Assembly (NCBI GenBank): GCA_964646465.1
Contig: CAZYEN010000015.1
Span: 1-63,987, forward strand
Reading direction: 5' to 3'
Source of the DNA: an uncultured Candidatus Saccharibacteria bacterium
Lineage (GTDB): Bacteria > Patescibacteriota > Minisyncoccia > SW-4-49-11
Length of the DNA: 63,987 nucleotides
Part shown: in pieces, positions 18,610 through 20,467 of the stretch
Layout: every line of letters begins with the position of its first letter
Position numbering within the stretch: the stretch's first letter is position 1
Program-made: the position numbers and the translations under genes
Notes under the pieces: model-generated
Told to the model about the DNA's origin: nothing
The model's database searches: none
Seen by the model: the letters and a program-made list of their open reading frames with translations, nothing else

Positions 18610-18960
18610 TTATTTTTTAGTTAAATACACACAGATAATATACACTGTAATAGCCGGAATACCTATTGAGAAGGCAAGTATATAATTTCCTATTGGAAAA
18701 TAACTTAATGAAAAACCAAATAGTACAGAAGATATAAATTCAAAAACAGTTATTAGGCTATAGTTTTTTAGTTTTGCATCTAATAAAATATAACTCTTTT
18801 CAATTTCATGATTTTTCAATCGAAATTTTTCACATTCGTCTTGTGTTTTTTTAAGAGATGCTTCAAGATTATTTACTTTTTCTAACATCATCTTATATGC
18901 AACTGTGGTAGATTGTTCTTTCTTAGTTAGATTATTTTTCTGCTTTCTTCCAGACCTCAT
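18610..18960 (-). CDS. Small coiled-coil protein with two C-terminal TM helices
   Basis: 116 aa. It lies 1 nt from both the upstream stop and the hsdS start, suggesting translational coupling. It has a basic N-terminus, a heptad-like middle and hydrophobic segments VFEFISSVLFGFSL and ILAFSIGIPAITVYIICVYL. Confidence 0.6.
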   Translation of the reverse strand: MRSGRKQKNNLTKKEQSTTVAYKMMLEKVNNLEASLKKTQDECEKFRLKNHEIEKSYILLDAKLKNYSLITVFEFISSVLFGFSLSYFPIGNYILAFSIGIPAITVYIICVYLTKK

Positions 18961-18961
18961 A

Positions 18962-19303
18962 CTATTTAAAAAGTTGGATTAAACCAAAAGATGACCAGCT
19001 AAATTGTTTTGTTGGCTTTCTATGAGGTATTTGTGGAATAGCTGGAATGGGGGGTATTTGTGGAATAGGAAATATTGGAGATGGATAGTCATTAGATAAT
19101 TCTGAAAAACCAACAACAAAACCATATAAATCTCTTATAACATATCCCTCTAGCCAACCCAGATGTTTACCTTTATATGAATAAATAATATTATCCTTCT
19201 CATAACCTAGGTTATATCCATGTTTATCACAAAAAGTACCTTCTGTTGAAAATATTACTTGAGGAGTACCATACCTATCATAGAACCAAATATTATTACT
19301 CAT
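18962..19303 (-). CDS. Small beta-hairpin-repeat protein (4-fold beta-flower-like) with a Pro-rich repeat tail
   Basis: 113 aa with repeated G/aromatic hairpin units (YGTPQVIF, HGYNLGY, KGKHLGWLEGY, LYGFVVGF). The tail is PIFPIPQIPPIPAIPQIP. The family assignment is by pattern only. Confidence 0.55.
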   Translation of the reverse strand: MSNNIWFYDRYGTPQVIFSTEGTFCDKHGYNLGYEKDNIIYSYKGKHLGWLEGYVIRDLYGFVVGFSELSNDYPSPIFPIPQIPPIPAIPQIPHRKPTKQFSWSSFGLIQLFK

Positions 19304-19468
19304 AAAAATTATTATTGTTTTCTATATCCACTACTATATTATCAATCTTTTCTTGTATGAACTTTATTGCTTGCTCTTTGTCCATGTATTATTGAAATAT
19401 TTATATCTCTATTATAGCATAATTATATTAATATGAGAGTAGTTTTCAAAAATCCAATTCTTCTTGTG

Positions 19469-19519
19469 GACTGAGCCTGTCGAAGCCCTAGATCCCATCG
19501 CCTTCGATAAACTCAGGCT
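19469..19519. repeat. GC-rich imperfect palindrome (REP-like element)
   Basis: In GACTGAGCCTGTCGAAGCCCTAGATCCCATCGCCTTCGATAAACTCAGGCT the arms CTGAG/CTCAG and TCGAAG/CTTCGA pair. It sits between two divergent promoters. Confidence 0.6.
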
Positions 19520-19551
19520 ACTTCTGTTTTATCCATTACTACTCATTGCTA

Positions 19552-19580
19552 TTGAAAACATAAAAGGATTATGGTATAAT
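19552..19580 (+). promoter_or_regulatory. Near-consensus sigma70-type promoter with extended -10
   Basis: TTGAAA (19552-19557), a 17-nt spacer, then TGgTATAAT (19572-19580). Confidence 0.6.
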
Positions 19581-19586
19581 GTATTT

Positions 19587-19694
19587 AGAGTTACTGGGTG
19601 ACGTATCCTACGACTAATGTCGTACGGGGCATTGACCCAGCACTCAGGACTCTATAAAAACAGCTCTCCATTCGGAGGGCTATTTTTATTTTTT
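19587..19694 (+). ncRNA. Candidate structured small RNA, convergent with and antisense to the DUF3800 3' end
   Basis: The consensus promoter lies just upstream. There are three nested perfect helices: UAGAGU/ACUCUA, CUGGGU/ACCCAG, and UACGAC-UAAU-GUCGUA. A terminator hairpin GCTCTCC-ATTC-GGAGGGC (19663-19680) is followed by a T-run (19681-19694). The locus has no ORF and is GC-rich relative to its surroundings. Confidence 0.45.
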
Positions 19695-20467
19695 GGACGA
19701 AATAACCATATATTAAATTTTGTTGATTTAACTATTATATATTTTTTACCAGTGAATTGAAATGTTCCTGCAAAAACAATTTTATCTAATATATATTTCA
19801 TTAATTTAACTTTGGATTGTTTTGCATTTACTTTATCAAAAAAACCATTTTGATAATAACCTATTCCTCCCATAATTATATCAATAAGTTGTATGAACAC
19901 TACTTTCTTTGAATCTACAGGTGTAATATTATTTACATACCTTTGTTGTAAATATTCTGGATTAACTTTAAGTGAAAATTTTTTCCTCAAAGCATTATTG
20001 AGAGATTCATATAATGTATTTAAGTCTATTTGATGTTGAGGGTTTGTAATACTATCTGGATAAATTTTATAAGTAGCTGGAATATGAGAGTTATGTAAAT
20101 ATAATTGATATAATAATTTTATGAATCCTTCTTTCTTTATATTATTCTGTGATATTATCTCAGGGTCCTGTGTATCAACAAGCATAATACAAGATCTAAA
20201 TGTATCTTTATCTATGCAATCAAAAAATATATCTACTAAGTCCTGATATACATTTAGATATTTATCTGAAACTTTACTCCACTTGAACTCTCCTAAAAAA
20301 TCTACTTCTTTGCCTTCTGAATTTGTATATCCATATTTTTTTCTTAAAGACTCTATTGAATTTTTTACATCAAGAATATTATTCTCATCAACCCAAATAC
20401 CCCCTAATAGTAAAAACTTTTCATTTCTATGTCTACTCTCATCAGAATATATTCTTATCGTACTCAT
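19652..20467 (-). CDS. DUF3800-family protein
   Basis: N-terminal IRIYSDES acidic motif and C-terminal VVFIQLIDIIMGGIGYY block typical of DUF3800. The start is 1 nt after the hsdM stop (TGAAATG). Confidence 0.65.
   Translation of the reverse strand: MSTIRIYSDESRHRNEKFLLLGGIWVDENNILDVKNSIESLRKKYGYTNSEGKEVDFLGEFKWSKVSDKYLNVYQDLVDIFFDCIDKDTFRSCIMLVDTQDPEIISQNNIKKEGFIKLLYQLYLHNSHIPATYKIYPDSITNPQHQIDLNTLYESLNNALRKKFSLKVNPEYLQQRYVNNITPVDSKKVVFIQLIDIIMGGIGYYQNGFFDKVNAKQSKVKLMKYILDKIVFAGTFQFTGKKYIIVKSTKFNIWLFRPKNKNSPPNGELFL

Follow-up and report, generated by a model that had tools for sequence, protein, structure and literature searches.

We analysed contig CAZYEN010000015.1 (assembly GCA_964646465.1) of an uncultured Candidatus Saccharibacteria bacterium; this whole stretch of 63,987 nucleotides (nt) is the window to which all coordinates refer. 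It carries a type I restriction-modification (R-M) operon that is complete by profile scans, with hsdM, hsdS, and hsdR all on one strand and other genes lying between them. On the minus strand the order is hsdM, a gene for a DUF3800 protein, a gap of 348 nt, an open reading frame (ORF) for a protein of 113 amino acids (aa), an ORF for a protein of 116 aa, hsdS, a RAYT-like gene (REP-associated tyrosine transposase), and hsdR. The hsdM stop codon TGA (20471-20469) is followed, after 1 nt, by the DUF3800 start codon ATG at 20467, and spacers of 1 nt also separate the 113-aa ORF (18962-19303), the 116-aa ORF (18610-18960), and hsdS (17424-18608) from each other. A preliminary description of this region had given these coordinates and 1-nt spacings, which were all exact. 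It had also pointed out the motifs IYSDES and IQLIDII in the DUF3800 protein, Gly/aromatic repeats and a PIPxIP tail in the 113-aa protein, and a coiled-coil-like half with two transmembrane (TM) segments in the 116-aa protein. All of these features are present; a Pfam scan confirmed the DUF3800 family and the assignment of the 113-aa protein to the beta-flower family (PF21784), and hydropathy analysis bore out the architecture of the 116-aa protein. We agree with its view that the three genes are non-R-M cargo within an hsd operon, and nesting in R-M operons recurs elsewhere for both gene sets described below. However, the cargo is not one three-gene module. It consists of two unrelated cassettes, the DUF3800 gene with a conserved small RNA (sRNA) gene and the beta-flower gene with the gene of the 116-aa protein.

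The 348-nt gap between the DUF3800 gene and the 113-aa ORF (19304-19651) is bordered by a bidirectional hairpin resembling an intrinsic terminator (19662-19681), which lies between an A-run and a T-run, overlaps the final DUF3800 codons, and would serve both the DUF3800 mRNA and the convergent sRNA. The hairpin was found by a terminator scan on the plus strand, on the minus strand it was matched as the terminator stem of two Rfam models, and a hairpin of different sequence occupies the equivalent place in nearly all related loci. The predicted sRNA promoter on the plus strand (19552-19580) has a -35 box TTGAAA, a 17-nt spacer, and a TG-extended -10 box TATAAT (TTGAAA-17-TGgTATAAT); it agrees with the consensus at 11 of 12 positions and ends 6 nt ahead of the sRNA core. 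A second promoter-like site on the minus strand (19422-19449, TTGAAA-16-TATAAT, also 11 of 12 consensus positions) lies ahead of the beta-flower gene, the 116-aa gene, and hsdS. Between the sRNA gene and this cargo promoter, the leader contains a GC-rich imperfect palindrome (19469-19520, minus strand) that folds as a long hairpin. We considered whether this palindrome is a repeated REP (repetitive extragenic palindromic) element and discarded the idea, as it occurs once in the window and otherwise only in the related loci L001-L003, where its arms are more perfect. A 29-aa ORF at 19296-19385 on the minus strand has a stop codon that shares bases with the start codon of the beta-flower gene (ATGA). 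It is truncated in L001 and missing from the other beta-flower loci and is therefore unlikely to be a gene. With the terminator, the sRNA gene, and the cargo promoter in between, hsdM/DUF3800 and beta-flower/116-aa/hsdS are probably separate transcription units. The preliminary description had seen the three genes as translationally coupled into one operon and made in stoichiometric amounts with HsdM and HsdS. The elements in the gap contradict the first claim and, with separate transcription units probable, stoichiometric synthesis with the M and S subunits is not implied.

The independence of the two cassettes was apparent from their distribution. The DUF3800 gene occurred with a beta-flower or 116-aa gene in none of ∼19 non-redundant DUF3800 loci, and neither a DUF3800 gene nor the sRNA was found in any of ∼25 beta-flower loci. 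A sister operon, L001, has 85% nucleotide identity to the window over hsdM, DUF3800, the sRNA, and the leader up to window position 19363, and the homology picks up again in hsdS, the RAYT gene, and hsdR. The place of the beta-flower pair is taken in L001 by an ORF for 345 aa (3352-4389), which stands behind the same promoter (98% conserved). The 345-aa ORF, a further candidate for an embedded cargo gene, had no match in Pfam, PADLOC, or PHROG. Hence, the slot behind the shared promoter gets refilled with different cargo. As both cassettes also occur in type III R-M and non-R-M contexts, neither is specific to hsd operons.

These results bear on the model put forward in the preliminary description, in which the DUF3800, beta-flower, and 116-aa proteins form one sensor/effector module whose synthesis is stoichiometric with that of HsdM and HsdS and which senses the state of the type I complex. 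Such a model would fit the fact that all three genes share the strand of the hsd genes and that single nucleotides separate them from hsd genes or from one another. However, the two gene sets were never found together elsewhere, L001 exchanges the beta-flower pair for another ORF, DUF3800 is set apart from the other two genes by the terminator, sRNA gene, and promoter of the gap, and both cassettes are found in type III R-M operons and outside R-M. We therefore give this model hardly any credence. The neighborhood census that the preliminary description had proposed thus separated its two expectations: the three genes do not co-occur, but each set is recurrently present in R-M operons of types I and III.

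The DUF3800 protein (271 aa; 19652-20467, minus strand) matched PF12686 over residues 6-204 with an E-value of 1.2e-11 and 45.9 bits, compared to a gathering cut-off of 21. It also matched the PADLOC profile PDC-M04A (PDLC04353) with an E-value of 4e-33, its residues 1-259 aligning with profile positions 1-229 of 232. We found no match to PDC-M04B among the neighbors in the window, the small ORFs in the gap, or the neighbors in related loci. A PDB sequence search also gave no match to the DUF3800 protein. Its AlphaFold2 model had a predicted local distance difference test (pLDDT) score of 86, and the top 8 Foldseek matches of this model in the PDB were RNase HII/H2 structures, archaeal RNase HII foremost (best E-value 1e-4, probability 1.0, template-modelling scores of 0.33-0.49). 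In the model, D9/E10, D98, and D138 lie at the ends of strands 3-11, 90-98, and 132-138, respectively. An alignment with 24 homologues showed conservation of the nearly invariant D9-E10, of D98 and D138, and of a Q193xxD196 motif in which Q193 and D196 are invariant. The modelled fold thus appears RNase HII-like with an intact set of acidic active-site residues, and the protein is a putative nuclease. Conservation of this active site argues for an enzymatic role. The fold agrees with the published description of DUF3800 as RNase H2-like (PMC7736814, PMC10910872), and an N-terminal DE and a C-terminal QxxD motif characterise the family (PMC7736814).

A homologue search retrieved over 130 proteins closely related to this DUF3800 subfamily from candidate-phyla bacteria and other lineages, and we fetched 23 loci, comprising 22 of the close subfamily and L048, an outlier with 32% identity. 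A GC-rich element of ∼70 nt begins directly past the DUF3800 stop codon (19585-19655, plus strand, with a structured core of ∼67 nt at 19587-19653) and adjoins the DUF3800 gene, once each, in all 22 close-subfamily loci; it was missing from L048, the only such case among the 23. The DNA of the element is 84-97% identical among the 22 loci, compared to 52-65% for their DUF3800 proteins. We propose that it encodes an sRNA convergent and antisense to DUF3800. The full sRNA is predicted to be ∼100 nt long, from the core through the terminator, with its own sigma-70 promoter. Its conserved start is GGAGU and, at an equal distance from the core, a TTGACA/TATAAT-like promoter was the best match in most of the 22 sequences, across phyla; 3 of the 22 scanned sequences had no good promoter match at that distance. 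A three-way-junction fold on the plus strand had 94.4% of alignment cells paired, 7 compensatory pairs, and a covariation score of 0.211, which none of 500 shuffles matched; one of the base pairs occurs as GC, CG, and UA types. A nested three-stem fold showed less covariation and was retained solely as an alternative, and it may represent another conformer. From the alignment we built a covariance model (R1), which scored 81-99 bits with exactly one match in each DUF3800 locus and gave no match in the beta-flower loci.

We considered whether the element works instead as DNA, as a site for recombination or protein binding, or as the 3' untranslated region of DUF3800, which would be consistent with its beginning at the DUF3800 stop codon. 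A fold of the stems is also possible on the sense strand, where 92.5% of cells are paired. However, the terminator-like hairpin separates the body of the ORF from the element on that strand, whereas in most loci the other strand is framed by a promoter at a fixed distance of 6 nt and a terminator downstream. The mismatches of the sense strand are mainly A-C and turn into G-U pairs on the antisense strand; there, the long stem reaches a paired fraction of 97.2% (sense strand, 92.0%) and the covariation score is 0.211 (sense strand, 0.158). A sense-strand RNA had weaker support in pair counts, covariation, and the positions of promoter and terminator and was rejected, and we regard a function as DNA or as an untranslated region as quite unlikely.

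A search of Rfam 15 with the region 18900-19800 on both strands gave no relevant match at E ≤ 10, and at the gathering score none of the families DUF3800-I to -XI was found in the window or in 12 related loci. Rfam 15 includes DUF3800-I and DUF3800-IX, and the novelty of the sRNA is judged against the motifs in Rfam; as none of these matched, it is an unlisted or new motif. The near-invariant sequence of the sRNA argues against a programmable guide. Two viral contigs from IMG/VR also bear the sRNA without an intact DUF3800 gene (L049, 5579-5649; L050, 84-154), with a C-terminal DUF3800 remnant of only 21 residues in L050 and none in L049. These copies could be decayed modules or phage-borne decoys. 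In a gammaproteobacterial metagenome-assembled genome, LOOT RNA (RF03000, 76 bits) is located ∼3.4 kb upstream of DUF3800 (L038, 2459-2581, minus strand). LOOT RNA is reportedly another orphan motif of the 2017 survey that gave the DUF3800 motifs.

The neighbors of the DUF3800 subfamily included ResIII (9 proteins), N6_N4_Mtase (8 proteins), type I N6_Mtase (4 proteins), Methylase_S (4 proteins), and Type ISP (1 protein). DUF3800 lies mostly within type III or type I R-M operons, the commonest layout being mod, DUF3800, sRNA, and res, and the gene often abuts or overlaps a methylase or specificity gene on its upstream side. R-M links are absent from a few loci, for example L034, which adjoins a serine recombinase gene. 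In L031, a PDC-S18 protein (DUF5655, 4e-120) and a DUF4238 protein are encoded (6444-8450) 3' of a DUF3800/sRNA unit outside R-M, and this copy lies in a defence-island-like context.

The second cassette begins with the gene of the 4-fold beta-flower protein (113 aa; 18962-19303, minus strand), which matched PF21784 with an E-value of 8.6e-20 and 71.7 bits, compared to a cut-off of 25. We know of no biochemistry for the beta-flower fold. The AlphaFold2 model of the protein had a pLDDT of 83.5, with 8 strands within residues 5-67, and Foldseek found nothing significant for it in the PDB or BFVD; this lack of structural matches is in line with how the fold was first described (PMC10584680). A sequence search in the PDB gave no match either, and we found no relatives of the protein in viral contigs. 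Its proline-rich IPxIPx tail varies in repeat number between the window protein and the homologues P0122-P0147; one 9-residue tail unit is absent from the window protein and 3 of 11 aligned homologues and present in 7 (∼121-126 aa).

The second gene of this cassette (18610-18960, minus strand) encodes the 116-aa protein with a polar, heptad-like N-terminal half resembling a coiled coil and hydrophobic segments at about residues 68-88 and 93-112, which by hydropathy form a C-terminal two-TM hairpin. It belongs to no family in Pfam, NCBIfam, PADLOC, or PHROG, and its own family, small at 71 clusters in a set of 1.84 billion representatives, is best conserved at the N-terminal LTKKEQSTTxAYKMMSEKINNLEASLKKTQDES. 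The profile and structure searches suggested by the preliminary description thus yielded an RNase HII-like fold for DUF3800, but neither a structural match for the beta-flower protein nor a family for its neighbor. We detected 29 homologues of each of the two cassette 2 proteins, many of them on contigs of equal length, and one pair had consecutive locus tags. A homologue of 115-116 aa with 50-65% identity is encoded directly 3' of the beta-flower gene, at a distance of 1-4 nt, in 24 of 25 fetched loci. Among type III loci, 7 distinct ones have the pair between mod and res, and in at least 8 type I loci it is located among or next to hsdM, hsdS, and hsdR, for example in the order hsdM, hsdS, beta-flower, TM protein, hsdR in L014, L020, L021, and L051-L053. 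In three loci it stands alone, located after purD, after ppdK, or beside a serine recombinase.

We favor, with moderate confidence, the reading that the hsd operon holds two independent cargo cassettes, a protein-RNA pair and a beta-flower/membrane protein pair, which are candidate defence systems. What we computed here is the anatomy of the locus, the independence of the two cassettes and the recurrence of each within R-M operons of types I and III, the sRNA gene with its covariation, and the RNase HII-like fold. An anti-phage role of either cassette is a candidate function suggested by their location, through guilt by embedding, a published criterion for candidates in defence (bioRxiv 10.1101/2024.01.29.577857); we likewise infer that the sRNA binds DUF3800 and that the beta-flower pair acts at the membrane. 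In cassette 1, the putative DUF3800 nuclease would be translated in tandem with hsdM, and the convergent sRNA would share its bidirectional terminator. The sRNA may bind the nuclease and regulate or license it, either as an antitoxin-like inhibitor or as an obligatory cofactor, and infection would then free or redirect its activity against nucleic acids. In cassette 2, the beta-flower and coiled-coil/two-TM proteins would be expressed with hsdS from the internal promoter and could act as a sensor and a membrane effector, respectively, that stop infected cells. By its domain, the beta-flower protein is kin to Cernunnos, a PF21784 protein encoded by a single-gene integron cassette of Vibrio cholerae that protects against phage (bioRxiv 10.1101/2024.07.02.601686).

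Several points weigh against this reading. The three stand-alone beta-flower loci, which adjoin housekeeping genes, fit an autonomous defence system and, equally, a role outside defence. The census is small (tens of loci) and consists largely of metagenomic genomes of candidate phyla. The assignments for these particular proteins and for the sRNA come from sequence and models, and the strand of the sRNA was assigned from the positions of promoter and terminator and the counts of G-U versus A-C pairs. In addition, PDC-M04 in PADLOC is a two-protein candidate whose B component was not found here, and Cernunnos is a single-gene system to which cassette 2 is likened by domain and not by sequence.

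Two other explanations would account for the embedding differently. First, the cassettes could be of autonomous origin and serve as PrrC-like guards, kept latent by contact with Mod, HsdM/HsdS, or Res/HsdR and firing when a phage anti-restriction protein disables R-M. At least ∼80% of the informative loci are R-M-embedded in the same orientation, and spacers of 1-4 nt or overlaps tie the cassettes to methylase, specificity, or restriction genes; PrrC itself provides a precedent (10.1101/2024.01.29.577857). However, the hosts are unrelated R-M types (I, III, and ISP) with differing subunits, stand-alone copies of the cassettes occur, and neither cassette resembles PrrC in sequence or domains. 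We consider such guards unlikely.

Second, the cassettes could be selfish or regulatory. DUF3800/sRNA would then be an addiction module of toxin-antitoxin-like nature or a mobile module, or an insulator that uncouples the expression of the methylase from that of the restriction or specificity genes, and the beta-flower pair a hitch-hiker without a role against phage. The proteins of the window and L001 are 97% identical for DUF3800, more than for HsdM (82%) and HsdR (75%), which would fit this explanation, as would the low GC content, the spread over phyla at 52-65% identity, the bidirectional terminator inserted between R-M genes, and the orphan sRNA on the two viral contigs. Against this, we saw no transposase, integrase, terminal repeat, or target duplication beside the DUF3800/sRNA unit, and the RNase HII-like active site is conserved. 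Moreover, embedded cassettes have mostly proved to be true defences: in the guilt-by-embedding screen of genes within R-M, BREX, and DISARM loci from which the PDC candidates stem, 7 of 9 tested candidates were functional in defence (bioRxiv 10.1101/2024.01.29.577857). Overall, a selfish or regulatory role appears fairly unlikely.

A bolder version of our preferred reading, in which the cassettes are candidate defence systems, is that DUF3800/sRNA forms an unrecognised kind of immune or addiction module made of protein and RNA, which is tied to the methyltransferase gene in type I, III, or ISP systems and has the sRNA as check or cofactor of the nuclease. The viral sRNA copies would then be decoy antitoxins, and the beta-flower/two-TM pair a PrrC-like guard. 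We put this forward tentatively, as a possibility of rather low probability.

The host operon itself has the expected type I components. The methyltransferase gene hsdM (20469-22025, minus strand) matched TIGR00497 (1.5e-227) and PF02384 (1e-113). The specificity gene hsdS (17424-18608, minus strand) encodes two target-recognition domains (PF01420, 2.3e-61; PADLOC Specificity_I, 4.5e-100), and the restriction gene hsdR (13563-16631, minus strand) encodes an EcoR124-type C-terminal domain (TIGR00348, 1.2e-169; PF12008, 3e-64). The center of HsdS (residues ∼182-196, window ∼18030-18070) contains tandem copies of ELEAELEAELEA. The number of copies of such an HsdS repeat determines how long the recognition-site spacer is in the EcoR124 family, and the ELEAELEAELEA repeat may therefore be a specificity-switching repeat. 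The RAYT-like gene between hsdS and hsdR (16753-17382, minus strand; NF047646, 4.2e-17, under the curated cut-off) is part of the context, outside both cassettes, and is 85% identical in L001. A GC-rich motif, CCCTCGCCGRC, is present in 5 copies in the window compared to 0.13 expected; three copies lie within the RAYT ORF (16949-16959, 17225-17235, and 17264-17274), and two build a palindrome upstream of hsdM (22139-22154). The GC content of the cargo region is 0.26-0.31, with 0.255 in the DUF3800 gene, versus 0.34-0.36 in the hsd genes, and this dip suggests a foreign origin of both cassettes by horizontal acquisition.

Parts of this picture are already known, namely R-M-embedded DUF3800 as a defence candidate (PDC-M04A), the association of DUF3800 with non-coding RNAs, and defence by one beta-flower protein. 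The terms used in the preliminary description, 'undescribed' for the module and 'not established' for the fold of DUF3800, are outdated in view of the RNase H2-like fold, the match to PDC-M04A, and the anti-phage activity of Cernunnos. New are an sRNA outside Rfam, for which a promoter, a terminator, a structure, and a strand are predicted, the strict linkage of this sRNA to a DUF3800 subfamily embedded in R-M, and an obligate beta-flower/two-TM gene pair with strong R-M embedding. DUF3800 has been a puzzle since 2017, with eleven unrelated RNA motifs adjoining its genes, and it recurs in retrons and in Cas12a2/a3 loci. The subfamily described here provides a compact test case, consisting of a 271-aa RNase HII-like protein and a predicted sRNA of ∼100 nt with a mapped promoter and terminator and covarying stems. 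As the protein and the sRNA are always adjacent, usually within an R-M operon, their relationship is directly testable. For the Cernunnos-like proteins, the obligate membrane partner and the R-M association narrow the hypotheses on their action, and the locus exemplifies an hsd slot that receives different cargo in sister operons.

Both cassettes can be compared with known systems. Some parallels are functional analogies only. Pairs of the RexAB and Sucellos type consist of a soluble sensor and a small effector in the membrane, the arrangement that we propose for the beta-flower and 116-aa proteins. Type III toxin-antitoxin systems (ToxIN) combine a toxin with a structured RNA and have a terminator between the two, which parallels our proposal for DUF3800 and the sRNA. 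The ToxIN RNA consists of tandem repeats upstream of an endoribonuclease toxin, whereas the sRNA described here is single-copy, convergent, and downstream. RexAB, Sucellos, and ToxIN have no sequence or fold relationship to the cassettes. PrrC, the anticodon nuclease of the EcoprrI hsd operon, is the classical case of a defence gene inside a type I R-M system, and like the present cassettes it is cargo of a non-R-M kind that lies among the hsd genes and on their strand. In contrast to PrrC, none of the three proteins has an ABC-ATPase or anticodon nuclease domain by Pfam and PADLOC, and the cassettes extend beyond type I systems. Unlike the single-gene Cernunnos, the beta-flower protein is paired with a 115-116-aa coiled-coil/two-TM protein in 24 of 25 loci, most of them R-M-embedded.

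DUF3800 is the effector of type VII retrons (PMC7736814) and is also found as TPR-DUF3800 proteins linked to Cas12a2/Cas12a3 (PMC10910872, PMC13594972). The protein described here shares with them the RNase H2-like domain, the N-terminal DE motif, a structured nucleic-acid partner, and a location in defence loci. However, its locus has no reverse transcriptase, msr/msd, TPR domain, or CRISPR array, and the subfamily keeps the QxxD motif that is absent from the retron-linked proteins (PMC7736814). The likeness to PDC-M04 is closer, as the protein matches component A over the full length and is embedded in type I R-M in the same orientation as in the screen. PDC-M04 is defined by two proteins (FAM_00014>>FAM_00043), whereas the partner here is an sRNA gene, which was not visible to the screen because the screen is protein-based. 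Finally, DUF3800 genes associate with 11 non-coding RNA motifs (Weinberg et al. 2017, PMC5737381), with Rfam entries such as RF02969 and RF02968. For the drum and skipping-rope motifs, our literature search found no link to defence. The sRNA described here has no match in Rfam and is tied to an R-M-embedded DUF3800 subfamily, which sets it apart from DUF3800-I to -XI. Like these motifs, it is a structured, conserved RNA adjoining DUF3800 and followed by an intrinsic terminator, and a position on the opposite strand also occurs among them. In its conserved structure, its covariation, and its location next to a DUF3800 gene, the sRNA is thus of the same kind as the DUF3800 motifs.

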